A stretch of 64,000 nucleotides of DNA from contig CM102290.1 of assembly GCA_046563655.1 (NCBI GenBank), positions 8,556,001 to 8,620,000 of the forward strand, given 5' to 3'. Below, piece by piece: positions 7,646 through 60,600 of this stretch. The notes below the pieces were generated by a model. That model worked only from the letters and a program-made list of their open reading frames with translations, had not been told where the DNA came from and made no database searches. The translations under genes and the position numbers were made by a program. How positions within the stretch are numbered: the stretch's first letter is position 1; each line of letters begins with the position of its first letter. This DNA is from Yuukianura sp. NJ FZ-2021 (taxonomy: Eukaryota).

Positions 7646-10600
7646 TCACAATGGGTTAATATACTGTTTTCCGATTTCAACAACGTCAATTTCTGGTTTG
7701 ACTTTGTCGTACAAGTGCGGAAAAGCTCCTTCTGCGTGATACTTTTTGCGGACTTTTTCGTACAATGTCAAGTCAAACATTTCTTCAAATTCTGGACGGG
7801 TCATGAAAATATCAGCGTACAGGAAGGGATATCCGCCAACATCTCTAGTGAACCTGTGAAAATTTAAAAAAAAAACGGTTTTTCAGAATTCAACATTCAA
7901 AATCTTTAGCATGGTTGAAGCTTATTTTCTTACTTTTCCATATCACGTAACGCTTTGACGGCATCGTAAGGTTGCTTTCGCTTCACTGGTCCCGGAACAC
8001 CATAAATTCCAATATCATTGAACATTCCGTAGTTGGATCCCGGAACCATTTGGTCTGGTCGTGGCCGTCGAAGTTGTCCCCTAAAATCAATTACATAAAT
8101 ATGTCATTACATTACATCGCTGTCATGTCATTGATTCGAAATCGATACATTTCGGCAGTTTGATCTAAATGTTTCGGTTGCACTTACATGTGTTCTCCAT
8201 GGTCGTAAATTCGGCATGGATAGATGAGTACTGGATAAGTATCGAAGAGTTTTTCTGAAATATTGATTTGATCCTCCAGTTTGTTAATTGGAAGAACAAT
8301 GTCCTGGAAAACTTGTTTAGTGAACGTCATGGCTCTAATGCCGGGAGTCGTTGTGAATTTCAAAAATGCTGGTTTTGGTGGGAGCAGCCACCCGAAGAAG
8401 AATCTAAAGAGAGGATGATTTCCAAACGGAATCATGCATTCGACTACCCAGAAAATGGCACGATTGTGTCGCAGAAGATAATCTTGCATTGGAATATATT
8501 CTTCTCCTTCTCCAGACGTCAGAAACGAACGGACATGTTCGTAAAACCAAGGTTTGTACCATCTTGCCACGTGATTAATCTGAAATTAATTGGTTGTTCA
8601 TCAATTGATTGGTTCTTCTTGCAGAAGAGTGACGCTTTATTGCTTACTTTTCCCCATTGCATTACTGGAGGACGATCAGCAAAGTTGCCAATCATGAGAA
8701 CGGCTTCATCTTTAGAGAAAACTGTCGCTTCAACAAACTCTGGAACCTAGACAAAACAGAAGTCAAATGTCATCTACGCTCAGAGTTGTATAAATTGCAC
8801 CAAGTGGGCTTTTTTTGCATTGCACTGCAAAAAACTGAAAAAAAGTGCAAATAATGAAAAAAATGCAATAAATGCAATAAAGGTGCAAAAAAAGAAGGTG
8901 TTGTTATTTTGCACCTTGCTTCGATTATTTTTCATTGCACCCGCAAAAAATGAAATTAAATGAAAAATACTGAAATTAAATGAAAAGTGAAATAAACCGG
9001 TAAGTAGGTGCTATGTAAGCAGTAAACGGATTAACAAATTCCCGCCTATAAGGGGGCCCTCTTTGGTTTATCTAAAGGGGGGCTTCGAATGGGTAAACGG
9101 AATGTTAACCTCTGACATGGCCGAGGTCACTGAAGGTCAAATACGGCCAATGCCAACGTATGTATTATTTATGTACCATATATATGTTAACTTTAAGTGA
9201 AGTACATTAATGGTATATCAGTACATAAGCACATCTGAAAGTCTTCAGATTGACCTTTTTAGTGCATAAGTTGTGATTTCATCGGTGAATTGGCTAAACA
9301 CCGACGTAAGGAATGTAAGTCTCCCCGGTCTTGGAGGAGTGGAAAAGCTAACTGCGACATCCGGAACTATAATTTTTAATGCGGTAATCCGGTTAAGCAT
9401 AACTTGTCGTTAAGATTTAACGGAAAATAGTGTGCGAAGCAAGAAAAATCAGTTTTTTTCACTAACGTTTTTTTCAGTTACCTTTTTTTGCATTGCAGTG
9501 CAAAAAAACGCAAAAAAGTGCAAAATTGAAAAAAATGCAATAAAGTGCAGTAAAGGTGCAAAAAAGGATGGTGTTGTTAATTTCACTCAAACCTTTTTTT
9601 GCATTGCGCTTTTTTGCGCTTTATTTCAGTGAAAATTTCACTTCTGAAATATTTCACTTTATTGCATAACAACTCTGTCTACGCTATGTGTGGCATGAGC
9701 TTACGTTACCTTCTTATTTTTATCCAGAGCGCCAGAAGCATCACGAATAGCATCACAGTACTCTTTTTGTCCACGAATCGGAATGTATTTCATGTGCAAG
9801 TAAGGCTTGACTGGAATAATTTCCAGTTCCAGAGCAGTGAGGAATCCAAGACTTCCGTGTGACCATGGCAGAGCATAATAAAGTTCTGAGTGCTCGTTGT
9901 CCTTCGTTGCCGTGACGAGTGATCCATCTCCAAGGACGATGTCATAAGATTTGATACACTCTTGGTAAAGACCAACTTTATGAGAGTATGTTGTCATCCC
10001 TACGCCCATTGCCAATCCACCCAAAGTTGCATCTGCAATCTCCAACGTCACTGCCAAAGTGTATCCTATATACAACAAAAACGTTTTCAGAACGTTCAAG
10101 TCAAATTCCAATGTTACACAAACATCGCTACTGGGTAATCCAATTACTAATCGTTCCTTACCTTTCGGTACGAGATACTGAGTAATCTCTCCAACAGTTA
10201 CCATTGGCTCCACTTTGACTGTCAGCTTCTTTTCGTCGAGTTCCAGCACATCGTACAGTGGAATGGGAATCTGTTGACATTCGTCCTGTAATTAGCAATT
10301 GATATTAACTTAAGAAGATGTAAATGGAAACATTCCGGACTAGATGTCAACCTTACCTTTCGGAAGAAAGTGACCGACAGACTGAGCCAGTTCGGGCGGG
10401 CAGTACATAGTAGCTTCCGGGTTTTCGGATCCTGCTGATTCCATGTCCGGATCTATAAAGCATAAAATTACCAATTACGATTAACTAGTCTTAAACGATT
10501 TGAAATCAATCGAACATTAATTCTTACCTTGGCTTGGATTTCCTTGACTCTTTTATCGTGGAATTCCGGACCAGCGGATAGCTTTCGTAGAATCCACGAC

Positions 10601-12463: not shown

Positions 12464-15400
12464 TCAAACAGGCGTTGAGATTGAACTGAGGATTTTAGCC
12501 CTCTGTCCTGCCCCTTCCTCATCTTCTTTTGGCTTCGCATGCACCTCAACTTGGACACCGGACCGTGGATCACCGTCGCCCTCGCCCACCATGGCTACTC
12601 CGTCGCCATCCCCATTCTCCTTCTCAAGGTTTGTCGACGGTGCAGGAACCGTTGGAATTGGAACGTTCCTGGAGTAGCTGCCATACTCCCTTGGGAATTC
12701 AATGTGTGCTGGAATGGTGTTGAAAGAGTCTCCTTGACCGAGACCGTTCATATCACATTCAAATTTTAGATCCAACCGCGGCGGCTGAGAGTTTCGCACG
12801 GTGGACAGGGGTCGAGCTCCACCGAAGGTTGAGAAGTTTTCCACTTCTCGGAGCCCATTCATCCAAGCACGTGAACCCAGTTCTGTCAAAAAACTTATTT
12901 TAGAATTTCCGTTTACAAGATAAAACTTACATTAAAAAAAAACGGGACAAAATATTTTACCATCTTCAGCGTCCGTGTTCATCAACGACTCTGGAAAATC
13001 CTCTCCATTTCCACTGTCTTTTCCACTGGACGACTGAGAGCCATATCCAGGTCGAATGACTTTGGCAGCCTAAATTGTCATTTATACTTTAAACGCTTCG
13101 AAAAATACTTCCTTTTTTAAATATTGTTATTCAGCTCATTACTCATGCTTACCCGAAGTACGGACAGTGGTGGGTAGATTAGCTGACCACTCATGTCTGG
13201 ATCTTCAAACTTCAACGGCGTTACCTCAACGCTAGTCGTAATATCAGCGCTTCCACGTTGTCGTTTCCTCGTCGTATAAATGACGACGACCCATGCAGCA
13301 GAGGTAACCACGACACAGAACACAGCAATTATTATGAAAACGATTGTCATCATTGTGTTGTCCAAACTCGTGTTTGCTCCAACTGAAAACAGAAAACCGA
13401 AAACGTTTTTGGAATTCTAAACTTTAGCAAACCAAATGTTACTTAATAATATTATTATTATTAATTATTACAATTGCAGTTAAATTAATTCATATTTATA
13501 CTAATTTAAACTTACCAGCACTGACAACAGTAAGTGTAGACGAACTTCTAGCTACTCCAACCGCATTCGTCAGCAGGCATTCGAATTTGCCACTATCCCG
13601 TGCATGAACTTCTTTAATCAACAGCAATGACCCGTTTTCAGTCAAATGGTAACGTTTATCCAATGCCAGGATTTCTGTTAGCTGGACACCATCTTTAGTC
13701 CAGACGATTTGTGGTTTAGGAGATCCACTCGGTGCACATTCCAGGATTGCATTGCTTCCGAGAACAACGCTTTGATCTTGCAACGGATACCGGAAGCTCG
13801 GTGTCTCTGAAAAAAAAAGGAGTCAAAATTGTTCATCCGATTCCAAAAACTTGCTAAACAGCAAAGGTTAGCAAACTTACCAAAGACAGTGACAGTTGCA
13901 TAAGCACGTACTTCTCCTGCAGTATTTTTAGCCGAACAAGAGTACATTCCTTGATCAGACATTTTCACTTCCATGATAAAAAACGAGTCGTCATTCGGCA
14001 TCACGTGGAACCTTCTCTCCAGAGCCGCTGGAAAGTCTTCGCCGCCATCTTTTTGAAATCCAATTTCCGGAATTGGATATCCTTTCGATCCACATTCAAA
14101 CTTTACGTTACTTCCAAGTCGAACTGTTATATTTGACGGTTTCTTCACAAACGTAGGAAAAACTAGGTAAAATCAAACAAAAATACCATAAATCATCTTG
14201 TGCTGCAGGCAACTTTGACAAATAATCGATTAACTTACTGTGAACAGTGACATTTGCCTTCTTCGAATACACAATGCCTAGTCCCTTCCCGACACACTGG
14301 TACCATCCACTGTCAGTCCAACTAACATTTACCAAATTCAGTCTTGACATGACTTCCAGTCTTCCCTCACCGTCCACACGGTTTGAGGTCTCAATGGAAC
14401 TTTGCTGCAATAACATAGTCATACCAATTATTAAATCAACACAAATCACTTTGAATTTAAACAATTTCTAAAAACTTACCAACTCCCTGGGCAGCGGCTT
14501 GTAGTCTTTCTTCCATTCAACTGTAATGGGAATGTTTGGCGGTGCTTGAAGGTGGCAGACTAGAGTTCCATTCCCTTCTACCAGGAATGTTTGAGTTTTT
14601 GGCTCTTCCAAGAATACTGGTTTTCGGTACTTATCTGCAAGATCAATCGAGACACAAATCGCGATTAATTTCCAATTCACGTCCAACTTTTAGTCATCTT
14701 TTACACCTTCAAAACATTAATGTTTCTTAATTTTGGAACCTACCAGAACATGACAAGTTCTGAAGAGTGAGATCCAACAAGTTTCGGTTGGCCAGCTCTA
14801 GCGGAAAAGCACACATCGTCGTTTCTTGTTGCAGTTTTCTGCCTTTCCCCCCGCGACCTTCGTGTCTGGCACGATTTATTTGCTGTTGCACGAGTTTTGC
14901 ATGGAGCCATTGTATTTCACAATCACAGACGAGAGAGTAGGTGCCAAAAATTTGTAGGTTGACAGCAGGGGTAGCTAGAAACGTCTTTTCAGACAACCAA
15001 GTGATTGGATTGTCGCTGAGGTTGATGAATCTCAAGTGGCTAAGGCCGTATAGCGACTCTGGATGCATGACATGGATTCGGTTTGAAGCCAAATTGAGTG
15101 TGTGACACTCCTTGAGACCTCGAAAAGGTGCCACAGTGTCTTCCAGAACCCATGATAGCTCGTTGTGACTCAAATCCCTAAACAAGAACACAAGTTAATT
15201 TATTAACAATTAATTAATCAAAATCGCGGATAATTAATCATAATTAAGTTGAAATTGTTTTAATTTCACTTACAGAGTTTCTAATTTCTCCAGTTGTACG
15301 AAAGCGTCTGGTTCAATCTCCACAATTTTATTTCTGCTTAGGTCAAGCGTTCGTAATTTCGACAGGCCAGAAAGCGTTTTCTTGCCGATGAATGTCAGTA

Positions 15401-30143: not shown

Positions 30144-31580
30144 AACAAAGCCCTAATACATACCCCCAGAAGTTTTACATTTCCGGCAGTTTCCGGGACC
30201 CTAAAAGACAAACTAAAATTATATTATATGAAGTATTAAGTTGTTTATTAATTAATATATAAAGTAAGTACAAGTAAATTAAATAAATTAACAATCTTCT
30301 ATTAATAATTCGCAACAACCAGAAGATTGCGTACAAGATGACGCAGGTTCCTAATTCTCCAAATTCTAAAATCCAACCTCGAAAAAGTTTTTTGATGGAT
30401 TTAAACTCAGATATTTTGTTGTTTTTTTTCTATGCTATACTAAATTACATTTTGGAAACAAAATTGGATTTTTCTTCGCACAACATTCTTTATTAAAGTG
30501 TATTTGATGATATATTGCCTTCTTTTCTTTCTTTTTTTTTCCATTGAAAAGTACTTTTTGTCCCAGAAGGAATCGCGTGCGGGTGACTAACTTTTTGTAA
30601 AGTGGTAAAATTGTGGACAGTTTTCTAAAAATATCTTTTTTAAACTAAGTCAAAATTTCTAAAATTCAAAATAGTATTGCCATAAAATCTAACTTTCTAC
30701 AAAAATCTAAAACTTTTCATTTTATGGAAGTTATCTAAAGAAATACATTGGACTGGATGTTTTGAAAATTTTGAAAACTAACAGTAAAACTCTTAAATAA
30801 TTTTGAAAAATCAAGTCTTCTGAGATAGAACAGTTAACACATCATCCTACCTCATCACAACTAGTTTAAATACAGAAAACTCTGACTTTAGGTTAGGCCA
30901 ACATAGCGTAACTTTTCAAGATGGACATAAAAACAGTTTTTTCTAAACAGAATAACTTGAACATTTTTCAACAAAAAATTCAAATTTAGACACAAAAATG
31001 CACCTTTCAGATTCCATGCACCTTGTTAAAACTTTGGACCTCAACTTAGATTGTGACACAAAACTTCATTTTTTTTTAAATCTTTTGTCAAACAACTTCC
31101 GACTATGTTACATTTCAAACAACTTGCGAATTAGCTGTTTGATTTTTTAAAAACAATTTCCTATATCCACCATCGTTAGCTACAAATTCTCTGCGTTCTA
31201 CGATGGCCTCTCCGTGCGACACGGTTGGGATAAACCGGAATCGTGTCCAATGTAAACACACAGTGTAACGCACAGTGTGACCCGCCTACTTGGTAATCAC
31301 TCAGTGGTTATACGGGGTGGTTACAGAAGTCGCCTACAGAAGGAATCTGTACACTGAAGGAATCCTATCCGTTAAAAATATGTTTACGTATTACTGGTTA
31401 GTTGATTGCATAATTATCTATGAACTAAAATATCCTTAGTAGTTGCACAGCACTCGGCCTCTTCCTCGAGACGGTTTCTGTTCACTAGGTCACTAGGTTA
31501 AGGAACCTAACTGCGGACACTTCTCCCTGTCTGCAATGCGAGATGAAGCGACGACCGGTAGGTTCATGGACCATGCGCCT

Positions 31581-34500
31581 CTAGAAATCCATTCTCTGGT
31601 CACTCAGGAAGGTTTGAGGCATCATGGGATCATTTCCAGTTAAATTTTCCATGCCCAGGAGCAATTCGTCCTCCATGATGTCAACCAAAGAGTGTTCCGG
31701 AGTGGAGACCGAGGGGATGTCACTTGGCGGTTCCTAAACAACAATTCAAATTTAAACAACCAGATACGTGAGAATAACAAATACCCAATTTCATGGCGTA
31801 TAATAGCGTACACTTTAACGTAGTTGTAGCGTAATTGTGTACAACGCAAGGCTTAAACAAAAAACTTTTTTCTTATTTTGGTTAGTAGGTTAGGTTAAAT
31901 TTCTGACAGATTCAAAGAGCAGTTTGTTTTTGCATTCCAAGTGGAGTTTCGAGCCGGAAAAATATAAGACAACGCGAGCGTAGCACGCCGAGAAATGTGG
32001 TATTACAAAAAATACTAAAAAAAAGTTGGGCCCACCCTCTTGACTTCAACTGCCGGAGGAGATCCAAGGTAGTGCTGCAAGCCATTAGCATTGTCAAGTC
32101 GCCGCCAAGTCAACTTTGACTCAGGTATCGGAATATGATTTTGAACCAATAACTGTTCGTATTCCTTGAAAAAATAAGAAGAAAAAAATTAAAAAGAAAA
32201 CAAAGCAACAAAAAGTTAATGACTCAATGTCAAAAAGTTATAACAAAAAAAAAACTCAATTTAGAAGACAAAGTACCTTAATTTGTAGCAAAAGTCTTTT
32301 GTTTTCAGAGTCCACTTCCTTTTGATTAACATGAAGGTTTTCATTTTCCTTACGGAGTAATTTGATATAGTCAACAGTGGCCTTGAGGATATTGCCTTTG
32401 TGAAATCTGAATTCTCCTACTTCCTTGTGATGACTGTGAATCAAAGTCAATTCCAAGAATTCGTCATAATTTTCATAAATTTATCAAAATTATTACGAAT
32501 TTTATTTTTAGTTCTAATTTTAGAACAATCCTCTTACGGTTCGCCGTCTCTTGGAAGCATCTTGCCCAATTCCGTTATTCTGTCATTGATATTGAAACGC
32601 CGCTTCCGTTCGACTAGAACAAAAAAAGTATTTTGACAAACTTTGAAAATTCAAAAGTTTGAATTTTTTTTTTCAAAAAACGGAAACTTTGTAGGAGTTT
32701 ACTCTGGTTGTGGTTGTCCTTTCGTTGTCGGTCTTTGGCTATTTTTGTAGGATCGTCATACTTTGAACCAGAGCCAGATGACGTGTGACGTCGGTTATTA
32801 GTAGCGGAAGTTGGAGCTGAAGAGTCACGTGACTCGGTACACTTCAAAGTAACAAATCCATCCGCCAGATCGGACGTGTCATCTTCCAAGTCCAAAATTG
32901 TGTTGATGATGTCCGTCTAATTCAGATTAAAATAAAATAAAATTCGACAAAATCAAATATCCAAAAATCTCAAATTTTGAATACCCTTTTTCCAAAATCT
33001 GTTACCCCAACTTCCTGAGTGGATCCAACACTCGTCACAGAAGAAACGAGAGAGCTGTAGGCTCCAGGTGAAGCCGCCACAAGGTCAAAGTGTGAACTGA
33101 GCTCCACTGTGGCTGGAGCTGAAACGGCTTGATTTCCAGCAGTCACTTGCTGTTGAAAGCGATTCTGAGTAGCTGAACGGAGTAGGAAGGGGGACGTGTG
33201 GGTTCCGCCAATCAGAGGAGGTACACTCCCCCCGGTTGCGCCATTTTCGTTCAAAAACTGACGCATTTGGGTATCTCGATGATATTGCGTTGGATTCTCT
33301 AGAAGACTTGACACCTATTACGACACACACAAAATCAAAAACAATATGAGAAATCGTCATAACTTCTGGTTATGGTTTGGTTGCGAATGCTACGTTTTAA
33401 ACATTATGTTTAACGGACCTTCAGGACTTCCGGTGGAAGGTTGGCGGAGAGATGTGGTGACTCAGCATTCGGAGCAAGAACGACCACTGACGAAAGTGGA
33501 ACGGAATCGCTCGTGTTGAGTCGAGCTTGCTGAATTTTTCGTTGTTCACTTTCCCTTCGGTCGTCATCCGCCGTCTTCATCCTCATCAATTCTTGCTTCA
33601 GCTGAGTTCTCGTCATTTTGCTTCGGTAACTTGGAGGTGTCGACGATACTGGAACCGACTCGACTCTGAAATTCAGCACAATTTTCAGTCAATCTGAGAA
33701 CAAACTTATCTGAAAGTGTTTGTCAGCTGACATTACACTATCGTCATCGTCAAAACACTATTATGAATTTGCACTATGCGATGTGTTTCTTGCACAATTA
33801 ATTGAGACCAATAACGATGTGGTCAATCAAGTGTACTGGACAAGACTGTCAAACTAATTGAGAAAAAGTTAAAAGTTGCGGAAACGGGAACCGGCAAAAT
33901 AATGTCTGAATGAGTCTGAGTCAACATCATAAAACTGTCTCTTCCCACGGTCCGTTTACATGCGTCATCAAATTGTCCACGGTAAAAAAAAAGTTGTTGT
34001 CGAATGTAGAAAGTGCTTATGAAAAGAAACAATAAACAAAAGAACCGAGGTAGCCTACTAAGCACGTTCAATCCTTTTGTAAAGTAGCGTGACACTTTCA
34101 AAAACCAGAGGCCTCAGTTCAAGCGAGGAAGTTTTCAGAAAAACTGCTGACGTCTGTGGAATCCGATTACTACGAGCCTTGCATAAGGTCTTAAAAACTA
34201 TATTAAATAAATAATATTAGGTCAACAAACTTAGTCAGTCATATGATCAGGTTTGGGAAGTAAACTTTCCCGGACCAATCATAACAATGCTGAATAACTT
34301 TGGACTAGTTAATTATTAATGTTAGTCTAACCCTTCATGAATGGTCATCGGTGTAGAAACGGAAGCTGATGGGTGAGTGTAGTACGTGTTCCTTGTTACA
34401 GGTTGGAGGGTTTGAGCAGGCGTTGTAATATTAGCACCAGTGTTACTAGAAGTGAGAAGTCCAGCCGTTGACGACGTCGTGGCGGCTGCCATATTGTTAT

Positions 34501-34633
34501 TATTTGCGCTGTTATTGAGATACTCCGAAGAGAGGTGGGCAGTATTAAGGGTGTCCAGGTACATGTCCATTGATTCGTGAGAGTAATCAAAGCCCAATTG
34601 AAATGCAAATTCGAGATGCGGAATAGGTTCCAT
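31581..34633 (-). CDS. Mitf: MiT/TFE family bHLH-Zip transcription factor, 8 coding exons
   Basis: MTRTQLKQELMR and VLKVSSLLENPTQYH (MITF/TFE N-terminal domain); KDRQRKDNHNQ|(I)ERKRRFNINDRITELG; HKGNILKATVDYI; C-terminal DIMEDE...DPMM; stop TAG at 31581-31583. Exon phases are compatible. The first exon (34332-34633) is less certain. Confidence 0.93.
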
Positions 34634-36697
34634 CTTTCCTACGTGTTACTAAAACCAAATACAATTAGTCATTATACTCAATTGTTAATCGTTAATTCGA
34701 TTGTTAACGTTCTCGATCAAGTCCATTAAAGTCTTACCAGTTACCACTATATTCTCTTCAGTTACAAAAACGAAGTTGGCTAAAAGACAGGGCCTCTTCC
34801 TATTTGCTCAGCACAGCGATTCAGCAGTATAGATGTTCCTCTGAGCAATGTCGAATGACAGAGTACTGTAACCATAAAGTAATCAATTAGTTTTGTTGTT
34901 ATTCACATAAACTTTATAGTTACCATCTACAGTTACACTACAACTTTCTAAATTACCCTGACCTACCTCACTCCAGTCTCGTTTGGTAAACTCGTCCTAA
35001 CCGATTAAGAGAACATGTATCTATCGTTTTGGCCGAATGCCAAAAACGCAACTTAAGCTCCAATTAGTAATGGACAGTACCGATTCGAGACTCAGTTTAC
35101 ATACCTACGTTTGCTTCTTGTAACTAGTTACATCTGTCTGCTTCCAGTGACCTCCGAGTTCGTGTCAACCGTCACCAGTAGCCTCAGTTCCATTCGTCCA
35201 CTTCTACCCACCGATAGTTGCTGACTTTGGGATAGTTATGTTACGGTGGTGTACACGGTAAGCCCTGTCCGGTTGTTATGTTCCGTAAAAGTTATGTTTG
35301 TATGTAAATATGAAAGTATAGGGAGTAAATGAGGTGGTGTGAGAGCGAGAGGTGTGAATAACTAATTAGTCCTCACTAACTAACTTGAGTCTGAGTCCAC
35401 GGCCCTTCTCCAATGCTCGTCCATACACAAAAGCCCAACGAGTGTACAGTGAGGTGTTGGACAATTAATTAGTGGACAGACAGAGCTAGGGACACAGTAG
35501 AACTTGTTATGCCCACAAAGATGAGTGTGAAATGTCGAAATTGTTGATGATGCAAGAAAAGAGACAGACAATGGGAACCGTCCAAGTCCAAATCATATCC
35601 AACTCATGTGTCCGTCCTAAACGCATTTGGTTTGACTCTGTGGTGTAAAAAACGCATACTCATTCCTCGGCCTCGAGCTTTGCTCCGGTTATAAAAAAAA
35701 CACTCAAAACAAACAATTGTCATCGTCGTCAATCGTCCAGTCCAGGAGAGGACCACTCTTGAGTGTCCAGCATTTTGGTAATCGTTATCATCAGTGATAT
35801 ACTGAGCTCGGCTACTTTGATACTCTCCTGCCCTGTCCTTTAGCCTGACCAAACCCCATGGACATAGTCCTCTTCAAATGGGTTGTAAATCATCATTGTC
35901 CAGAAAAACCACTTGAAGACACGTTTTATTGGCTTTGGATGGAATTTAGAATGAGGATGACCACGGTAAATCACAAATTGAAATCCACCACAGGAGTATG
36001 TCTATGAATTTTGATTTTTTTTTTACTAATGTTTAACTAATTGTCGTTTTCCTTATCGTTTAGAGTAGCAGAGGCAGAGAGGCATGGATGGGGGTATGTT
36101 GAAGTTGAACGTTCAAGGAGTTATAATGTCATTGGAAGGATGTCACATGAAAGTAATTGTAATGTGTATGGTTTATTGTTCCCCTTACAGACTTGAACAA
36201 GCTTGTTGGGGATTCCTTGATTTTTGGACGGCTTTATAACAGTACTAAAATGCCTCTATGTGTGAATATTCTGGATGGATGTTTTAGCAAAAAGCGAATG
36301 CTAAGTGTGAACAGGAAGAAGCCGAGGGTGTTGGTTGATTAGCTATTTAGTTTCATTCATAGTTTTCCAAGGAAGACAAGTGACAGTTTCAGTTACGGTT
36401 TTTAGTGTACGAAAAGGTTTTGGGCTTTTGGGGACAGTAATATCCCACCCACTAATTAAGGAAAAGTGACACAAACACCATCAGTTTCCGCAATGACAGC
36501 TTTATTTTTCACTCTTTTCTAGATGAAAGACCTACGAAATCTGGAGCATCGTGGACGTTATACTCCAAATATCAAACAGTGGACATAAGTTCACACTCGT
36601 CAGTCATCAGTGATCCAGCTCACCTTCGGTATCGGATCGTTAGAATCGCAATAAGTTATCAAAATCGTGTCCAGAAACGGACCAGTTCTTGCCAGCA

Positions 36698-39600
36698 ATG
36701 GAACCCACAGTCTGGACACCTCGACATCCCTTACCATCGTTTGGGGTCGGTAAGTACAAAGTGTCTGACAACAAAAACTTTACCAATTGTTACAAGATTC
36801 AGAATTCATGAGGTCCATCATATCATAGCCAATACCCAGCTTCCCCCTGCTTTGCTTTCATAGAATCATCTTATTGTCGTGTCATTTTTTGTGTGTTATT
36901 TTCATTAATGCCAAGCTTTGTTCAACTAATTCTGGATATCGGCGTGTCTCGACATAACAATTGCAAAATATTGTGACGCAACGATGAAGGAATTTGAGCA
37001 AATCATGAGTCAACAGAACCAATTTAACCTGAACTGATTATAAGTTTTGGGTTAAGGTTCAAGGCGAAGTTGTAAATTCCGTTTTTTTTAAACTTTTGAA
37101 CAGTTCAATGCAATTTCGAAAATGATTCGAATCCACACTTCCTTATGGCGACACTTGGAGAATCAGTGGAAATCCGTGCCGAGTGTCAAGATTGGTTCTA
37201 CGTGGCCAAGGTTGACGATGAAGAGGAGGAAGGAATCATTCCAAAGTCTTATATTCATGTTCACAGTTCCAACATCTACCAAAGGTATGTAAAAATTAAC
37301 GTTTACTTTCACAGTAATTTGAGACATGCATTAAGTTAATTAGTTGGACATTTTTGTTTTTCGATTGAGCAGAAGTGATTCGCAAGGGAATAATTCATCT
37401 TGGGCGGATGTGATTGGAGAAACCACCGAAGTTCTGAAAGAATGGCACAAAATATCCATTCAACACTTTCTGGTGATTTTGAATTCCCAATTCTAAAAAG
37501 AAATCTAAAACTTTGAATTGCTTTTAACACCGAATTTTGTTTTTATAGACTCGGAATGCGTTGTTTCAGATTATTAATCGAAAAATTATAGATTTGCATC
37601 TGGCTCGGAAGGAAATTATGTCACAAAACTGGACTGTGGAGGGATTGAAGCATCTTCGGAAACGTGTCGCCCACATCATTGATTCTGGAAATAAGTAAGA
37701 ATTAATCAATTGTTTTTAGCTAATTAATCAATTGAAATTAATGTTGATTGGAATTCCATACTAGTATCTTGAAGTTGGACATGATTGTACGTGATGATCA
37801 AGGAAATCCGTTAAACACCAAAGTCACTTCAGCCGTTCAACTCTTTCGACAACATCTCAAAACGAGTGAAAGATTGGAAAAAATGCACATGGTAATTGCC
37901 CTTTGTCTTTTTGGAGTTACTTTTAATTTTTTTTTCATCCTTTTGCTAAAACTCTGCTAATTTCAGATGGATAGTACTGGCAGTTTCAGAGTTACAAAAC
38001 ACAGTAATTGTCAGTCTCTTCTTTTAATCTGTGAAAAAATTACATGGAAGTAAGCAGTATAAATCAAAACTTTTTTCGGAAATCGGAACTTTTTAAAATT
38101 TGACGGAAAATATTTGCAAATTCATTATTTAGACTTGTTGACGAATGTGAAATTCGATTGTTTTTATACGACGCGGATGAGGGGAAACCGTTTAGCGAAG
38201 GAGGACAAGTCAACCTTACTGGAAATTCTTCATTTTCAGCTTTTCGCTTTCTATTTACCGTAAGAAAGAACACTCTCATTTTTTGGGTTTCGAAATTTTG
38301 AAATTTTTGGAATTTTGAAAACAGGACTTGGGCAAGAGAGACAGAAACCGTGAAAGGATTTACCTCATCTTTTACATTGTGAGGATAGGAGCAATGGATT
38401 ACAAGGAAGAAAGTTCTAAGCGTGATAATGCACCATTTTCTCAGAAGTCTATGTAAACAGACCCTCATTATTTTTTCAATTACTTTCAAATTAATTATTT
38501 TTTATTCATTATATTAATATATTTATTAACTTTAGCAGCAGTCAAAGAATCCGGCGGCCGTGGGGGGCTGCTGCTTTAAATGTGACGAAACTTTTGAACA
38601 CTGACGGTCCAATTACTCCAACGGGAACTGGAAGTGCCGAAGAGGCTACATTTATCCCATTTTTTCCGTGAGTTAATGTGGTATTGTTTATTAAAATTTT
38701 CAATTTGTTAAAATTTTAACCTGCGTTTCAAGGTTTGGAGATAGTGATTCGTTAAAGACGCTTCTTACAAAAATCATCGAGTCACCCCAATTTAGAGATT
38801 CGGATAGAGGGTTCTTGTGCTCGCTGTCTCTCATTCCTGGAACACCTACCGAGGTTTCAGTTGACTTTTTACCTCTAGTGACCTTGATGTTGACTTGATG
38901 ACTTTGGCATTTCAAATTTTTGGTTTTAAACTGTAGGTTCAGGAGGAACAACCGTTGCTGATGCGAGGCAACCCAACTGTGATTAGGAAAATGGGCTTTC
39001 CTGAAGTGATTTTACCAAACGATGTTCGGAATGACCTCTACGTGACTCTTGTTGCTGGAGAGTTCCACAAAGGATCCAAATTCAGTGACAAAAATATCGA
39101 AGTTGCTGTCACTGCACACAATGACAACGGAGCAATAATTCACGTGAGCTAAAACATATTACCTACCACATTTCCTTCTAAATTCGAAATTTGACCTAAC
39201 TTTTGATTTCTTTTTATGCTCATTTGTTAGGGTATTATATTTGGAGGTAGTGGATCTGTGGGGTTGAGTCAGTACAGATCCGTTGTCTACTCGGATGAGT
39301 GGAGACCACGATGGGAAGAAACATTTCGAGTCAGTTTACCAATGTTCCTGGACCAGTTCTCAAAGGCTCATCTCAAGTTTTCTTTCAAGTACAGGTAAGG
39401 TCAAGGGCATTCGTACTAATTCGTAAATAATTCGTAGCAACCTAATTCGTACTTCGGTCCCTTAGATCCGCAAAAGAGTCCAAAGACATTTCTGAAAAGA
39501 CGTTTGCAATAGCCTATGTCCGCCTGCGTGTCGAGAAAGGACCGGCGCTGCCCGATGGAGAACATAAACTTGCAATTTTTAAAGTAATTGCGTGCAAAAA

Positions 39601-42600
39601 TTATTATAATTTTAGGCAATTAACGTCATTAATAATCAGTGTTGCATTAACTGCTCATAACAATTACAGGTAGAGTCAAGATCCTATCGAGAAACGGACG
39701 TTCACTACTTGCATCTTCCAGCGATGCTCACTGGTGGACATTCGGCCAAACGAAGTTGTCCCGGGTTGACATGGTCACACAAAGATACATTTTCAATACG
39801 AACCACCTTATGCTCAACTCAGTTTACTCAAAACGGTGAGCGGTCGACACTGCTGACATTTGACCTCTATTTTTGACTTTGATATGATGATGTTGACCTC
39901 GATCTTAACGTTTTTGAAATTTGAACAGAACACCTATTGGAGTTGCTACAGTGGAGCACAAGTCTGAAGAAAATAATCCAGAGTCAAAGTCAATTGGTTC
40001 ATGAAGTAACTCGTGAATTTTCATCACTTAATTAAGTTTTGTTAATGAATTGTTTAAAATATGGCTTATAGTTTGATGTTTTATGTTTTAGAACACAAGA
40101 ACGACGCTGTTTCACATGCTACTGAACAATTTGAAAAAGACGCTACAAAATGTGCAAGCAGTGAGCGGAGAAGAAATTGTGAAATTCCTTCCATATGTAT
40201 TCAACGCCCTGTTTTCCATTTTGGTGGAATCGCTGGAGTCGATTATGAACGAACTATTTTCAGCAACAGACGCCTTGCCACCAGCTCCAGGAGTCCAGAC
40301 TCAATTTGCACCAGAGAACTGTGACCGACCCGTCTTTGATTGCTTAGTAAGCGCATATCCTCCTACTTCAATTTAATGGACTTATTCAGTTCTAATGTTT
40401 GATTTAACTATGATTTGGCTTTTACTTTTTAGTTTCAATTTTTATTTGACTTTGGTTTTTCTTTCTGTTTTCCTCGGGTTTCTGTAGATTTATATTTTCG
40501 GACTCATTTTAGACCACAAGTTCCAAAATTTCAAATCTGTCCTTTACCATTACATTGAAGAAGAGTTTTCTGCTACCATGGCTTACACGTAATTGCACTT
40601 ACAATTCCTATGTACACTCCTAACCTTGCACTGTTTAGAATTTTACGTCTTCATTTTTGAAAATTTTGAATTTTGAAAATATTTTGTATTTTTACTTGGC
40701 ATGCAGGAAATTGATCAAAGAACTGACGTCTGCCATTTCAAATCCAATTTCGGATCGGGTTTTGAAGATTATGAAAAGTTTGGAATTTTTCATGAAGTTC
40801 ATCGTCAGATCATTTTCGATTAGAATCAAACTCCTTTCTATGGGGTAAGACTTTTAATTAACGCAAATCTAAACTAGCTTAAGTTAAAGTTAGCGTTTTG
40901 TTAACTTATCTTTAATTATGTTGTTTTTGATGTTTTAGACTTGAGTCCAATGAAGAAATAATTGCGAAGGAGGAAGCAGAATTTGAACAGTCTGTGGAAG
41001 CTTTGTTTGCTGCCCTTGGTGGTCTCGTGTCGATGGGGGAGATGCAGTTTGTGAATGCGCAAAAGGGATGCCTCAAGTACATTCCAACCATCATTGAGCC
41101 TCTCAGTACCGTATTTTCTGAGCAGAGACTAAGGTTTGATTAATTAACCTAAGCTACAGAAATGCCGAGCAATTCAACTTATTTGGGGTAATTTATGAGT
41201 TTTTGAATGTGAAGTGAGTTGCTGGCGGCGCTGATTATGCAAGTTGGACGCGGGAGACTCACCATTCCAAAATCGATAGCCATCATGGACATCGTCAAGT
41301 CGCAACTATTTCGAAATCCATTGTCGAGAACCATGCTTCTGCCAATTGTGGCGGACAATATCAAACATGATTTACCTGGAAACGAAGAGGTTTAACAAAT
41401 TTCGAAATGAGAATTTCTAAAAAACGAAATTTGAAAAAAGTGTTGGCTTTTAGGACTTGAAGCGACGGTCGCAGGAACATGCGAAGAATAGATCCAGAAC
41501 CAAAGTGGGTAAAATGATTGGACCGGAAGCGATTGAGGGGCCGTTAATGCTTTTGACTGCAGAGCCGAACAGACACTGCGAGGAGGTATTGTTAGCAGAA
41601 TTTAGAATTTTTGAAAAGTTTCTGTTTTTTTTAAATATCGAACTTTTTTTGAAAATGCTTAGACATATAAATGCGTTGAACTCTTGAGTGAAGTCATGGA
41701 CACTCTGTTCTCCAAAGACATCGGACCGACTGACCAAGACATTGTCTACTTAATTGAAATTTTACTGCGCAACATCATTTTGTCTGTGGGAACAATTGGA
41801 GACAATGACCCAATGGCTGTAAGTATTTTTTTAACAAATTTTTTAAAAAATGAATAAGTAACCTTATGCTGATGTTTTAGGGAAATATGGTTGCCATTTT
41901 GATGGCACTTTTGAGACAAATGCCTCCAGGAGCTTTTACAAATTTTATGATCCGTGTCAAAATGGAATCTGGTTTGACGGAACTGTTCAAGTTCATAAAC
42001 GACGCTCTCGTCGTTTTCAAAAATTTATTTTCAAAATGTTTTTTCCCGCCTCACTGGTCTGAAATGATTTTGCTTCAAAACCAGTAAGGTTTCTTCCAAA
42101 TTCAGCAAGCTCAAGAAACATTGGCAAAATTTTTTAATTTTTGATTTTGTACAGTGTATTGCTTGGTGCTATGGAACAGTTAACGGAAATTGTGAAATCT
42201 GAGTTTGGATCTCCATTTGAATTCATTCCTTGGAACAACTTCTTCCAGTGCGCAGTTTCCTTTTTGGTTCAAGACTCGCTTCAAGTGGAGAGTTTTCCTG
42301 TAGTGAAGAAACAGCGTCTCCTGGTGCAATATGGTGACATGCGCCTGCGTGCCGCTGGGCTCATTCGAATCATGTGGAAATGTCTGGGAGAGAAGCAGAT
42401 TCAGTTTGTACCGAACATGGTGGGAACTTTTCTGGACATGGGCATGGTCCCTGAACCCACCGTCAGAAGAATTGCCATCAGAATTTTCTTTGAAATGATC
42501 CGCAGTGATTTTCTGAACAACGGAAGTTTCCAGAAGGTGAGAATCCATTATTAGCCAATTAGTAATTGATTATGAGTAGCTAATTACTTTTAACACTTTT

Positions 42601-45600
42601 CTGTATAAGGTGGAAGATGAACTTATCAATCGGCTGGTGGAATCAATTGAGGCTGGTCACGGCGATCCGGCATTCAGGCACATTTTTCATGAGAAAATGG
42701 TCAGCAGCTGCTGTGAGGTGGGAAATGAGGCGCTCAAGGAACAGGTACGTTTCATGTTTTTAGTGATTTCCATATTTTTTTTGAGTTTGTTATTTTTGAG
42801 GCTTTTTATGCAATACTTGATTTGGTATTTAGGGACTACGAATGGTGGAGACGGTGACGAAATTACTGGATCTTCTGCTCGAGTATCGTGAAGTAATTGA
42901 TGAAGCTGATTCTGGAAATCGGATGACATGTATCGTAAACTTGCTGGTTTGTCAAGCACAAAACTATCCCAAATTTTGTTAAACTGAGACTGATTTAAAA
43001 AATTCACAATTTTCCAGGACTTTAGTATGGAGGTTGGCCGGAAGGAACTGTACCTGCGTTACCTGTACAAACTCCATGATCTTCACATTTTTAGTCACAA
43101 CTTCACTGAAGCTGCGTTCACGCTCAAACTGCACAGTCGGCAGTTGGAGTGGACGGAGGACGAAGTACCACATTACCTGAGATCTCCGAAGTATCCTCAC
43201 TTGACAACCCAAGTAGAACTAAAGGAAGCCCTGTACAAAGACATCATCAACTACTTTGACGATGAAAATGCGAAGAGTTGGGAATGTGCCATTGAAGTTT
43301 GTGATGAACTTCGTCAGTTGTACGCTGAAGAACTCTTCAGCTACAGTCAACTTCCGGAACTCCTTCTACGCATGTCCGATCTCTATGAAAAGATTTTGAA
43401 GGGAGTGAGATTCGAACCGGGGTACTTCCGTGTTGCGTTTTTCGGGAGAGGATTTCCGTCGTTTTTGCAGGATAAGGTAATTCAAAAGTTTCTATAAACA
43501 AAAAAAGAAAACCAAATTTTAAATTTCAAGATTTTGAAAATCAGGTGTTTGTGTATCGTGGTCGACGGTCTGAAAAACTTGGTGACTTTCAAGCAAGAAT
43601 GTTGGAGAGATTCCCGCATGCCGAGTTGTTGCGAACGCTCAACGCCCCGTCATTGGAAAAACGAAACTCGGTTTGTCAGTGTAAGTGGAACGAAATTGTG
43701 CAATGGTACATCGCTTCGATTTTGTTTTGTGAGCTGGAAGAATTTTTTTTATGTATTTTAGTGCTGCAAATATGTAGCGTGGAGCCTGTGATGGATATGG
43801 ACTCGAACAATAAGCGTTTGAGTGGCATGAAGTACGCAGAGGAGTCCATCCGCCGATATTACCGATCCAATGATGTCAACAAATTCGTCTACTCGAGGCC
43901 GTATCACAAAGAACCTAAAGATCCGAAGAACGAATTTGCGTCGTTATGGCTCGATCGATACACACTATGGACAGCCTCCTCTTTTCCTGGAAACATGAGC
44001 TGGTTTCCTGTAGTCCGAGAGTCATCTACGCAGGTACGGACTAATGGATTCGTGGACTCATGGATTGATAAGACTCATGACATGAGTCCAGTGACCTCCT
44101 TGAATCACTGTGTTTGACTCATTGACTCCTCCTTTGCATGTCCAGATTAAGCCAATCCTGTTTGGTATTGAAACGCTCGTGGACGCAAATGAGAAGCTGA
44201 GGAGTTTGATTTTGGCTCACTGCAGCAATCCACAAGAGGACTTGGGCACTTTGTCGATGAAACTCAATGGAGTGCTGGACGCTGCTGTCATGGGAGGAAT
44301 TGCCAATTATGAAAAAGTTAGTTTGCTGGAAAAAAAAAGAATACAGCATTTATATTCTTTACGTTACGTTTTTCTTGTAGGCATTCTTTTCTCCGGAATA
44401 TTTGGAGCGGGAACCGGATGATGCCCAACATGTTCTAACGATGAAGCATTTAGTTCTGGCTCAAGTTCCGCTGATTTCGGAGTGTTTACGAGTAAAAAAC
44501 CATTAAACATTATTGTTGTTGTTGTTTTTTTTTTCAATTTTATAAGACTACTCTACACCTATTTCCTTATTCAGATTCATCGTGAGAAGATTGCAGAATC
44601 GCTGAGACCTAATCATGAAAAATTGGAGGACAGGTACAGAGAACTTCTGACTCATCTTGAAGAAGCTTACGGAGATCTGGGCATCAACGTGAGAGAAATG
44701 AAGGACGAGGGACTACAACGTGACATGGAACGAGTCCAGAAGAAGCGATTAGCACTTACGCGGAAAGACGATAGAACGAAACCACATGTTATTACGAGAA
44801 ATTCAGAGTATGTTATGTTTTTAGCGATTAGTTAGTAGCTTAATCGGTTAGATTAACGTAATCTGTTAGGCTAACACAATAAATACTTGAAACTATAAGT
44901 TCAATTTTTTCTTGTTTTTTTTTTTCAGTGGAATTCGTGTGACGGCGTTACAACGCAGCAAGAGTTCGTTTTCGTCGACCCTCAGTGTCTACTCTGGATT
45001 TGCACATACCAAGTACGTGTTCGATTGAAAATATATTAATATTTTTATATATAATAAATATAAGTATTTGGTAATTAATTAAAAATTGTTTTTATCAGAA
45101 ATACTGTTGGCAAGTCCGTGGTTGCTATTCATCGCCCAGGAATAATGCATCGACGGTCTACGCAAAGTTCGTTTGACGAATGTGTTGGGATTGGGAGCAG
45201 CAGTAGCAGTAATTTGCGTGGGAATTTGTTTATAATGGGTTCCTCTATGAACAAACTGTCGTCAATTTGTGGAGAAGAACCTGAGACGTCCAATTCTCAT
45301 AGCACGTCCACTTCATCAATCCAGGTAGAAATGGTTAACCTCTCTATTGCTTTTCGTTCCCGAGATATGAATTTTTAAAGTTTTTAAAAATTAAAATAAT
45401 GAAAATTTATATCTCGAGAACGGAAGACGATAGAGACCTAATCTCTTCACGAAAAACTGTCAAAAATATTTAAAATTTTAATACATTTTATGTATTTGAT
45501 TAAAAGCTTCACCAATGAGTGGAAATTGTTTGTTTTTAGTCTCAACTCAATCCGAGGCTGTCTGTGACTCTGGACAATCGTAAGAGCACTGGAACTTGGG

Positions 45601-46860: not shown

Positions 46861-48074
46861 TTAAGCCATGTGCCCAATTCTGAAGAAAGTTTTGGAGGAA
46901 TCGGAGTCGATGAGGAATTCGGGAGTGTGAACGTGGGTTTTGGTGGGGGCTTCGAGTGGCTTCAAGACTTCGATGTTTGACGACGGGGCTGGTGGGAGAA
47001 CAGCTGAAAGGGCGGGGCTGGTGAACATTGGTTTGGATGCTGGTGGAGCAACTGGTTTCATTGGAACGACATAGCTGGAGTAGCTGGAGTGAGTGGGCTT
47101 CTCGTATTGGCTCAAGTCAACCTTGGGGAGGAGCAAAAGTGATCGCTGGATCTCCTCTGGGATTGGTGGAGACACTGGAATGTGAGATCCGATTGGCCGA
47201 AATCCATTTTCATCAGCGGTGTACGTCATGCTAATGAAAAGAAAACAGACAAGAAATGGTTGACATTTTATGTAGGCGTAGACACGTCGCAAGTGTATCG
47301 CAGGTATGTCGCAAGTGCGTCGCAGGTTAGTCGTAAGTACGAATAATGTAAATTTTTAGCTTAAGGATTGGGTGAGTAACATCATTTGTATCTCTAAGGA
47401 AGCGTAGCTGCATCGCAAGTGCGTCGCAGCTATGCCGCACGTGTGTCGCAGCTATGTCGCAGGTTTTTAGTAAAATGCTTGAGAACTGGTGGCTCACGTG
47501 AACTGTTGGTTTTCTGGAGATGTGAAGGAGAAGGATCCCACTTTGGTGGCTCCGGCTTCACCATTGATGACCTTCAGACCTCCAGATTCAGTGAACTTGG
47601 TTCCATCCTCAGAAACTGAACTGCGAAAATTTAGGTAAGAATTAGTCAAATAAGTTGACTTAATCAGGCTATATTTTCATAAAAACGTAACATTTACGAA
47701 CACAATTGCCGAGATAGAGGACTTACTCAAAGTTGTAGTTGCCAGCGTTGTCAGAACCTGAACGTAGAAAATTAAAGTTCGTAGCGTCAAATTTGAATTT
47801 ACGAAAAATAAATTATCCAAAATTTTGAGAAGCTTATCCAAAATGCTTACTTCCAACGAGGCGCATGATTTTGACAAACTTCTTGCCTCCAAGCGTCTCA
47901 AAAGTCGCCATGCGATGGCCGCTTTCGTAGCCACCATAGCTGTTTGCACTGACAGCAGCCACGAGAAATGCGAGACAAACAACCTTAAGGTATCAAAAAA
48001 TTCAAATCAAATTCTTGTTGGAACGAACATTTTTGAAAATTAAAATTCTGTTTTGCAATGCTTACGGCTTTCAT
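46861..48074 (-). CDS. RR-1 cuticular protein, 5 exons, about 221 aa
   Basis: Exons 48066-48074 (MKA), 47851-47983 (signal peptide [13 protein letters not shown]), 47727-47757, 47498-47620 and 46861-47230. R&R consensus GNYNFD...SEDG...ESG...[32 protein letters not shown], followed by PPIPEEI. Confidence 0.9.
47280..47463. repeat. Intronic minisatellite of about 11-bp GTCGCA-containing units
   Basis: Two clusters of GTCGCAAGTG/GTCGCAGGT/GTCGCAGCT units in the last intron of the cuticle gene. Confidence 0.6.
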
Positions 48075-57674: not shown

Positions 57675-60600
57675 TCAATTGTATCTGCTTTGTTGGTTTC
57701 GTCGTGACCTTCGAACTACTCTTTTAGCATGTCGTGACTTGGCATATTGAAAAGTATTAGCAAAGTTTGTAGGATAAGCTCCACGACTGCTCGGAACGTT
57801 CACGTACGGGTTTCCACTTGTAGGAAACTTCATGGTAAGTGGTTGGTGGTAGGAGCATGATGCTGCTGGGGCCTGTTGCAATGACGGACAGTATGGCACT
57901 ACTGCTGGTCTAGTGTAAGCATTGGATCTACAGTCTGGATAAAAAATGACTGGAATGTTGGACGTAATGGCTCCAGGAAGTTGAGCATAGTCAATTCCTT
58001 CTGGTTGTTGTTGTTGTGACTGATATGGACAATTGCCATAACGTTCGTCGCAAGGCAACCCTCCAGAAGATTGTTCTCCAGAATCATTTCCGAGCCCATT
58101 TTGGTCAACTCCGCTACCTTCTCCGGATTCTCCGGACTCAGTCGGCGGGACGTAAATTCCAGGCGGAACTGGGATTCGGCCGGGAGACATTCCAGGAAGT
58201 TTTTGCTCAAAGTATCCCCCTTGAAATCTGTCTCCGATTGACGATTGGGAAACTAAAGAAATAAAGTCAATTAATGTTATTTAAACCTAGAGGGGTTTAG
58301 CATACTAAACAAAAGTTAACGGTAACGCTACCGGGAGGGTTAAGGTGTCCACCGGGTTTCGAACCTGGACCAGAAAAATAACTTCCAGAATCTCCCGGTC
58401 GTTGTTCAGCCGATGAAAATTGATTCGTTTCTTGTGACCCTGAAGTAGGTGAAGCCGGTCGATGGCCAACGTTGTATTGAGGGGACAGCGGCCTCTGTCC
58501 AGAGCCCAAGTGAGGGGCTAACGTTGACATTGGCCGATTTCCAATACTGGATTGTGTAGACAGAGGTCTTTGTCCTCCAGCATTCAATTTTGGTGAAGAT
58601 GGAGCTGTTGGCCGATGTGCAGAGTTGAGGTGAGGTGACGACGTAGACCCTGGTCGATATCCAGCACCATGTTGTGGTGACTGTTGTCTTTGGCCACCAA
58701 TTACCTGAGGAGCTGCAGTCGCTCCTGGTCTTAGTCCAGCATTTGCTTGTGGAGACGCTGAAGGTGAAACGGGTCGATACCCAGCATTTGATTGCGACGA
58801 TGGTCGTTGTCCAGGATTTGGTTGTGGTGATGCCGTTTGAATGGTGCCTTGAGAGTGATGAGACAGCGCTTCCTGCGCATGCTCAGATGGATGTCCTGGC
58901 TGTTGCGTTGCACCTACTGCACTTGTCAGGACCTGGTCGCCTTGAAAATACTGTTGCTGACCTGCAGTACTTCCAGAAGGAGCTGGAACTGGCAAAACGC
59001 CTTGCAGATACGTCCCTTGGTTTTGGTTTAGTGAAGTTGGCGGGGTAGGATAAATGTAACCTCCTTCCGACGACTGCTGAGAAACTCCGGTGCCTGACGC
59101 ATGGTTGGAAAATGTTTGTGATGCTGGCTGAGCTGATGGAGGTGGGTTTTGGGCATTTCTAATTTCTTCAACGTAGTGTTCTTCAGACAAAAGGCCTCCG
59201 ACTCCTGGGCGTGGGAAGTTGACCTGTGGAGGTTGGCCGTTGACCTGAGTCTTCGGGCCGTTACCATTTGACGGTGGGGCATTGACCTGTTGTGGTGGTG
59301 GGACGGAGGATGGAAGTCTTTGGCCGTATCCCCCTGGCGGAGTATACGAATAGCCTCCCTTCTCCGCAGATCCATGTTGTACTAGTTTATTATCATCTGA
59401 ATTTTGCGAACTTTGAGCTCCAGCACCAGATCCTCCTGAATTTTGATTTTTCAAAGTTTTTTTTACTTACTTTTTTAACAATTTGATTCTGAATTGAATT
59501 AGGATAGTATATTACCGATTCCGCCAGACCCTCCATTGGCCGTCGAACTTCCGCTTGCGACTCCTCCTGAAAAAATATAAAATTTCGAATTTTGCTAACG
59601 CATGTCTTTTACAAATTCTGCTTTGGCATTTACCGTTGCCAGCAGATCCACCATCTCCGGCAGATGCACTGGAGCTTCCGCTTGCATTTCCACCTTTCGA
59701 AAAAATAATAATAATAAAGTTTTATTTTTCCAAAAAACTATGATTCAGTTAAGGTTTCCGCCAATTTCCTTTGCGTACCTCGCCCGCCAGCGCCAGCGGA
59801 TCCACCATTTGCACTGGAACTTCCGCTTGCGGTACCACCTAAAATATGGACAGATTTAAAGAAAAAATGTTTTTTATTTGTATTTGTTAAATATCTATTT
59901 AAATCTTAAAAAAAACTCACCGCGTCCCCCAGATCCACCAGCGCCACCTTTCGCTGTTGAACTGCCACTTGCATTCCCACCTTAATATGTTTTAGAAATT
60001 ATTGGAACTGAATATTTTAAAAATGTATAAATATCTTACCATCGCCACCACTAGCAGCATTTCCACCAACAGCACTAGAACTTCCACTTGCAACTCCACC
60101 TGTATAGACGCAACTTACATTTTTAATTTTGAAATTTTCATAATTAGTTAGTACAACAAGAACGACATTATTTTATATATTTTTACCTTTTCCACCAGAC
60201 CCGGCTGAACCACCATTTGCATTTGAGCTTCCGCTGGCAGATCCTCCTGAAACCAAATTCAAAATTAGCTTGAATTCAGCAGAAAAATATACTAGTTATA
60301 CTTTTGAAAATTTTCATACCTTTGCCGCCATTTCCACCATAACCTCCGCTTGCATCGGAACTTCCACTGGCTTCGCCACCTTAGTTTGAAAAACTCCTTT
60401 TAGCGTTAGAGACTACTTTCTTTAAATATTTTGGTTTTTTATCCAATTGTATTTACCGTCTCCACCGTTGCCACCATTTCCTCCATTTGCAGCGGAGCTT
60501 CCACTGGCAACTCCTGCGTTGCCACCGTTGCCTCCATTACCACCATTGGCCTTTGAACTACCGCTCGACACTCCGCCTAAAGTTAACGACATTTTCAAAG

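Follow-up and report, generated by a model that had tools for sequence, protein, structure and literature searches.

An arthropod MiT/TFE gene whose leucine zipper lacks the stammer, probably through an old and rare deletion

The stretch of DNA analysed here, a window of 64 kb (positions 8,556,001 to 8,620,000 of contig CM102290.1 from Yuukianura sp. NJ FZ-2021; all positions below are counted from its first letter), carries on its minus strand a gene assigned to the MiT/TFE family of basic helix-loop-helix (bHLH) zipper factors, to which Mitf, a master regulator of lysosomes and pigmentation, belongs, and the zipper encoded by this gene lacks the stammer, the three-residue insertion by which 24 residues separate the Tyr-Ile of helix 2 from the core Asn of the zipper in this family. 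The predicted splice model comprises eight minus-strand exons with GT-AG borders, which together form an open frame of 528 residues. The parts of the gene are listed in the order of translation; L001 is a locus on a metagenome contig and the closest relative of the gene among the 56 metagenome loci that were recovered, and residue numbers of MITF and MAX are those given in the available text of PMC6954422.

34332..34633, minus strand: exon 1, tentative, with the ATG at 34633; N-terminal region, open in frame, weak donor GTTAGA; no other part of the model is as uncertain.
33419..33665, minus strand: exon 2, start of the MiT N-terminal domain; AG/GT boundaries, match to PF15951, three of three variants synonymous.
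33006..33314, minus strand: exon 3, LENPTQYH motif and continuation of the MiT N-terminal domain; weak match to PF15951, similarity to L001.
32703..32916, minus strand: exon 4, acidic region and start of the basic region, ending in ...KDRQRKDNHNQ; open reading frame (ORF) listing, splice model and identity to L001.
32538..32613, minus strand: exon 5, basic region and helix 1 (ERKRRFNINDRITELGKMLP...); match to Pfam HLH PF00010, E 4.9e-6.
32277..32433, minus strand: exon 6, loop, helix 2 and stammer-less zipper; translation, PDB alignments, no variant in the contigs of four runs.
32400..32402, minus strand: His11 of the exon 6 peptide, just before helix 2 (HKGN; Asn in the family, NKGT); alignment, shared by L001.
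32331..32336, minus strand: site of the gap, codons of Leu33 and His34 of the exon 6 peptide; HMMER and MAFFT alignments, uncertain by a few residues.
32301..32303, minus strand: zipper Asn, residue 44 of the exon 6 peptide, at a core 'a' position; aligned with MITF Asn278 and MAX Asn92.
32036..32164, minus strand: exon 7, end of the zipper (EYEQLL...) and linker; splice model, similarity to L001, one variant, synonymous.
31581..31733, minus strand: exon 8, acidic C-terminus and stop codon; splice model, similarity to L001.

Membership of the MiT/TFE (Mitf/TFEB-type) family is supported by the domains, the motifs and the overall layout of the predicted protein. Besides the HLH match of exon 5, the ORF at 33410-33688 matches the Pfam family PF15951 (MITF_TFEB_C_3_N) with an E-value of 2e-6 and 28.7 bits for a cut-off of 27, and exon 3 matches profile positions 63-133 of the same family with an E-value of 0.0033, which lies below the cut-off when taken alone. 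Furthermore, the MiT-type bHLH signature (NHN-IERRRRFNINDRI) is present in the alignment with one Arg-to-Lys change as its sole departure, and in blastp the spliced model scores 196 bits with a springtail protein, from Allacma fusca, over residues 79-520, the next-best rows being Periplaneta, Ixodes and Drosophila-type Mitf. The HLH and PF15951 matches and the collinearity with Allacma and insect Mitf bear out, as far as the family is concerned, the first-pass annotation, made from the letters alone, which had proposed a Mitf orthologue. Because the sequence-based hallmarks of MiT proteins are all found, the missing stammer, itself described as a family hallmark that restricts partners, is treated as a derived loss inside the family and not as grounds for exclusion from it.

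Exon 6 is flanked by a CAG acceptor (32434-32436) and a GT donor (32275-32276), and 32277-32432 translates without a stop to HHKEVGEFRFHKGNILKATVDYIKLLRKENENLHVNQKEVDSENKRLLLQIK. Since this single exon encodes the loop, helix 2 and the zipper through LLLQIK, no splice choice could insert residues in the middle of the stretch. The conserved Asn of the zipper follows the Ile of DYI by 21 residues (+21), in place of the 24 of the stammer-containing family; this distance equals three heptads, and the heptad phase, as read from the sequence, is continuous from helix 2 into the zipper. Indeed, the core positions after this Ile (L3, N7, L10, Q14, V17, N21, L24, I28, Y31 and L35) are all hydrophobic or occupied by Asn or Gln. 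In the text available from PMC6954422, Tyr253 and Asn278 of MITF place the Asn at +24 from the Ile that follows the Tyr, and Tyr70 and Asn92 of MAX place it at +21 from Ile71.

The missing residues were located by comparison with proteins of known structure and with the family at large. A phmmer search of the exon peptide against PDB sequences returned 15 distinct sequences at E<=10, and the top two, 7eod_A (E 3.2e-8) and 6fx5_A (E 7.2e-7), are MITF constructs three residues shorter than the wild type, which align over query residues 7-51 without a gap. Nine MITF, TFE3 or TFEB chains of wild-type length instead place 48 chain residues across a query span of 45, with the three-residue gap following 'rkene' in the alignments of 9h5f, 4ath and 7f09. 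USF2 (8ia3, query 11-42, E 0.17) and SREBP-2 (1ukl, query 8-37, E 0.037) also pass the site without a gap, at weak E-values. MAFFT likewise opens a gap of three columns in the protein of the window relative to 163 other domains and to springtail-type exon fragments, one alignment with these fragments shifting the gap one residue further along than the others. The alignments thus show that the three stammer residues are missing, and helix 2 is predicted to continue into regular heptads without a break of phase. The acceptor and donor that bracket 32277-32433, the PDB and MAFFT alignments and the published residue numbers agree with what had been claimed from the sequence at first sight, namely a single-exon origin free of splicing artefact, a net deletion of three residues at the stammer, and registers of +24 for MITF and +21 for MAX.

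The deletion is a property of the DNA and not of the assembly, as the first-pass annotation required: Logan contigs from four DNA runs of two studies span 32277-32433 and show neither a substitution nor an indel there, three of these runs representing one sample that may be the source of the assembly. Over 31500-34700, 33 variant rows were counted in 3201 bases, only six of them within the 1587 exonic bases; five of these six are synonymous (exon 1 has one synonymous variant and A49S), and the 11 indel rows all lie outside exons. The gene is constrained and not dead. Separately, an A/T-rich simple stretch at 32640-32690, in the intron that separates exon 4 from exon 5, draws many unrelated contigs, so that depth peaks there, ends are left loose and two 'skip' joints are falsely called.

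Constraint is also seen in the comparison with the diverged relative L001. It encodes ERKRR, FHKGN and a gap-free helix 2-zipper of 38 residues with Asn at +21, 79% identical to that of the window. L001 begins within exon 3 and never reaches exon 1, and the exon 2 row of the comparison is therefore spurious; with this row removed pS (synonymous differences per synonymous site) is about 0.66, near saturation, and pN (its non-synonymous counterpart) about 0.12, while pN/pS is 0.23 over 312 codons with the row included and about 0.18 without it, by subtraction. Identity amounts to 70% in exon 3 (70 codons), 66% in exon 4, 96% in exon 5 (one non-synonymous difference vs nine synonymous ones), 74% in exon 7, with no gap, and 86% in exon 8. 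Because L001 shares the deletion, the Lys of ERKRR and the His before helix 2 despite nearly saturated synonymous sites, all three predate a deep split and have been kept by selection. Unlike the gene of the window, L001 has an additional intron of about 350 bases (L001 822-1168), which separates the KGN from the ILK codons of helix 2.

Other sequences of springtail type differ at this site. The three residues of the stammer are kept in P0003, P0009, P0010 and L002 as well as in Allacma; P0004, a fragment of 70 residues, has the exon structure and the length of the window's exon, but carries Lys at the position of the Asn. The zipper of Allacma (P0129) has a Pro in the stammer region (…SEKLKPLEAE…) and a His at the core position following the Asn. 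The zipper appears to evolve fast in springtail-type sequences generally.

The spread of the two spacings was examined across the family. An exhaustive phmmer search of the exon against 1.84 billion representatives gave eight matches at E<=0.001, six of them MiT-like, the other two (P0002 and P0007) being long multi-stretch proteins without the helix 2 motif; a word-based protein search with the 52-residue exon gave four candidates, none of which was scored. The sampling was widened by word-based searches with residues 325-425 of P0005 (best 120 of 3137 matches) and with a profile of five exon fragments (best 120 of 2857 matches). The set amounted to 225 sequences (224 fetched plus the model), of which 198 had the basic-region and helix 2 motifs together with at least 34 zipper residues and were kept, the 27 dropped being mostly fragments; these 198 collapse to 179 distinct domains. 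When aligned with MAFFT, the spacing from Tyr-Ile to Asn is 24 in 163 domains, 23 in three, 21 in nine, 17 in two and 14 in two. The phase of the stammer is hence kept in 165 of the 179 (spacing 24, or 17, which is one heptad shorter), and 11 are in phase (spacing 21, or 14, again one heptad shorter), namely the protein of the window and ten domains of a mite-like clade.

The spacing of 24 occurs in fish TFE3b, primate TFEC, the nematode Haemonchus, Limulus, scorpions, spiders, ticks, mites and a sea spider, in many insect orders including Drosophila, and in the springtail Allacma. Among 96 further matches of the fragment-profile search, the residue at +24 is Asn in 89 and His in seven. The scan of metagenome contigs, with its 56 loci, yielded 51 full zippers and four incomplete ones in addition to L001; in the 51 full zippers, position +24 holds Asn in 48 cases and otherwise His, Phe or Ala, and +21 is never Asn. 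Judged from this sampling, the stammer phase is ancestral and nearly universal in the family, and the state found in the window is rare and derived.

The second group of stammer-less proteins (P0005, P0006, P0008, P0011-P0016 and P0019) makes up ten distinct domains, His/Gln/Asn-rich, two of which (P0015 and P0016) lack a further heptad and account for the spacing of 14. In trees built by a 'quick' search from 85-86 columns with the gap region excluded, the protein of the window is sister to Allacma (SH-aLRT, the Shimodaira-Hasegawa-like approximate likelihood ratio test, 96 and 94), and the ten other in-phase rows form one clade (SH-aLRT 96 and 95) amid rows resembling oribatid and trombidiform mites. 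These topologies imply two changes of the stammer state, and an additional, independent loss is probable for the mite-like clade. The first-pass interpretation is supported in part, namely for the family, the net deletion, the in-phase register, the reality of the sequence and the limited spread of the state among invertebrates: a spacing of 24 is retained in Drosophila, ticks, spiders, Limulus, a nematode and a springtail. The state is rare in the family but not confined to the window's protein, as this clade has it too.

Other mite-like proteins depart from the common spacing in their own ways: P0101, P0102 and P0110 have a spacing of 23, a deletion of one residue that creates an unusual discontinuity of two residues, and P0033 and P0050 have a spacing of 17, with the stammer retained and one heptad lost. 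The zipper site seems to change length easily in the mite-like group.

Beyond the zipper, two departures from the family consensus which had been noted at the outset, ERKRR and HKGN, are real: of the 178 other domains, none has the Lys of ERKRR and ten have the His before helix 2. Both are common to L001, in which the His lies at about 806-808. Every one of the 11 in-phase domains carries this His, and each of the 168 others has Asn instead. The change to His may be coupled or compensatory to the loss of the stammer, or may reflect the coincidence of two events; because at most two evolutionary events are involved, the correlation can serve as a lead but carries no statistical weight. In its basic region, the protein of the window has the His, Glu and Arg that presumably read CACGTG. 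MAX likewise carries Asn at +7, and its basic region contains ERKRR. A reading of ERKRR or of Asn at +7 as a specific Max-like adaptation was rejected, Asn at +7 being common in mite and tick rows that contain the stammer.

The consequences for dimerisation can be approached through an engineered counterpart. According to the text available from PMC6954422, MITF(delta), from which the stammer was removed, still binds DNA, homodimerises and is 18 degrees C more stable; it co-immunoprecipitates with MAX, which wild-type MITF did not, and does not pair with wild-type MITF or TFEB. The rule drawn there is that only in-phase partners pair and that favourable a, e and g positions are needed as well; the same text states that no known MITF mutation affects the stammer, the authors having expected a severely deleterious effect in mammals. 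By analogy, the zipper of the window's protein would be symmetric and probably more stable, and the protein most likely still homodimerises and binds DNA at CACGTG or CLEAR-type (Coordinated Lysosomal Expression and Regulation) E-boxes. The phase barrier that separates MiT proteins from canonical in-phase bHLH-zipper factors would be gone, so that pairing with in-phase factors would be structurally permitted where the residues at a, e and g are compatible. Pairing with stammer-containing MiT proteins would be excluded. The published rule would allow Max, Mlx or USF as partners.

Altogether, we hold it about 75% probable that the window carries an intact, selectively constrained arthropod MiT/TFE gene lacking the stammer, through a deletion that is old, derived and rare, and that we infer its product to have kept DNA binding and homodimerisation. 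Several points weigh against this reading. Homodimerisation and DNA binding are carried over from engineered mouse and human MITF. As regards independent losses, the trees rest on few columns and a quick search, both stammer-less groups have the His before helix 2, and an approximately unbiased (AU) test with 60 rows and 86 columns does not reject trees that unite the 11 in-phase domains in one clade (p 0.375). Of the 41 columns with a conservation of 90% or more, the domain of the window deviates at ten, for a median of one, which is the highest count of the 179, and its long branch (0.8-1.0 changes per column) would suit a fast-evolving duplicate; a second, canonical Mitf copy may exist elsewhere in the genome. 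Finally, no RNA run was found for 31500-34700, the splice model is predicted and exon 1 is tentative.

Among the alternatives, a rewired choice of partners survives best, in which the protein would form functional heterodimers with the species' own Max-network, Mlx/Mondo or USF factors and so couple them to the lysosome/autophagy programme. The in-phase rule and the co-immunoprecipitation of MITF(delta) with MAX make it conceivable, as do the polar Asn at core positions +7 and +21 of the window's zipper, the latter matched by Asn92 of MAX at +21 (available text of PMC6954422). The same rule demands favourable a, e and g positions in addition, however, and Asn at +7 is common also among tick and mite proteins that have the stammer; we regard such rewiring as unlikely. 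Its extended form, with at least two arthropod losses of the stammer, each accompanied by the Asn-to-His change, and with Mitf forming functional heterodimers with the Max network, Mlx/Mondo or USF, appears quite improbable to us; if true, a regulator of lysosomes and autophagy would have been naturally rewired into growth-control networks.

The gene could also be a divergent paralogue, evolving fast and insulated by the loss of its stammer from a canonical, stammer-containing Mitf encoded elsewhere in the genome. Its record number of deviations and its long branch would fit, stammer-containing exons of springtail type do exist (P0003, P0009, P0010 and L002), and since the two forms do not pair according to the available text of PMC6954422, the deletion would insulate a duplicate at once. 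Yet the N-terminal domain, the acidic regions and the C-terminus are kept and collinear with single-copy arthropod Mitf, no second MiT-like exon is present within the 64-kb window, L001 maintains the stammer-less state under purifying selection, and the arthropod rows compared mostly suggest one gene per species, in line with the single orthologue of Drosophila and of C. elegans mentioned in the available part of PMC6954422. We therefore consider a paralogue distinctly unlikely. As for an artefact or a decaying gene, with nine bases lost by an error of assembly or consensus or with a pseudogene at the locus, the missing RNA run and the weak donor of exon 1 speak for it, but it is close to refuted by contigs identical across the exon, eight of eight exons open with GT-AG borders, exonic variants that are synonymous in five cases of six and a diverged relative of identical length.

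The preferred reading, an intact gene with an old loss of the stammer, concerns a gene that lies head-to-head with a large gene of the DOCK family on the plus strand (37100-45000), which has an SH3-like start near 37100 and a match to DHR-2 lobe A at 42994-43497 (E 1.6e-11). Further along, an ORF at 61184-61636 on the minus strand matches Chitin_bind_4, a family of arthropod cuticle proteins, with 32.8 bits, above the Pfam cut-off, another at 46861-47355 on the same strand falls just below it (23.9 bits vs a cut-off of 25), and a third minus-strand ORF (58297-59466, 389 residues) is of low complexity and rich in Pro, Gln and Ser; together these three point to a cuticle-gene neighbourhood and to the arthropod origin of the DNA. 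The minus strand also carries a gene with an FAD_binding_4 domain at 8184-10291, which we take to resemble a sterol delta-24 reductase, and a gene with leucine-rich repeats and an immunoglobulin I-set domain at 13678-15194.

To our knowledge, the stammer is the only documented three-residue insert in a coiled coil that sets the choice of partner in a bHLH-zipper factor, and we know of no probing of its role other than by engineered deletions. Natural orthologues without a stammer, maintained by selection, would provide a direct evolutionary test of the rule of partner restriction. They raise the questions of whether the stammer is dispensable where a single MiT gene exists, of what replaces its insulating role, and of whether cross-talk with Max-type factors takes place. 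No description of a natural stammer-less MiT protein was found in the literature searched, although a structure paper of 2012 may contain an invertebrate alignment; the accessible portion of an evolutionary review (PMC7815692) names the stammer only in its reference list, and that of another review (PMC6672050) mentions neither the stammer nor invertebrates.

Among known systems, the stammer-less MITF constructs (MITF(delta), 6fx5, and the shorter construct 7eod) have a spacing from helix 2 to the Asn equal to that of the window's protein and supply its best and gap-free PDB matches. The differences are that the window's protein is natural, apparently old and under selection, that it is only about 45-50% identical to the constructs in the exon, and that, as aligned, its deletion falls a few positions beyond that of 6fx5 on the helix. 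With the MiT/TFE family (MITF, TFEB, TFE3, TFEC, Drosophila Mitf and the HLH-30 type), the protein shares the bHLH-zipper architecture, PF15951, and the motifs ...KDNHN-IER-RRFNINDRI, KG-ILKA-VDYI and a zipper Asn followed by LLL-I, and the boundaries of its loop-helix 2-zipper exon match those of the springtail-type fragments. Unlike the family, it has no stammer, a Lys in ERKRR and a His before helix 2.

The mite-like clade resembles the window's protein over the bHLH-zipper only: it has the in-phase spacing, the His before helix 2 and the Gln of NHNQIER, but differs by its mite-type loop (VRDMKQ), by its ERRRRYNIN basic region and by the lack of an MiT N-terminal domain detectable with Pfam. 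MAX, USF and SREBP share with the protein uninterrupted heptads from helix 2 into the zipper, with, in the case of MAX, the same 21 residues between Tyr-Ile and the core Asn according to the available text of PMC6954422. They are related to it at the superfamily level only, whereas the family motifs and flanking domains of the window's protein are of MiT type.

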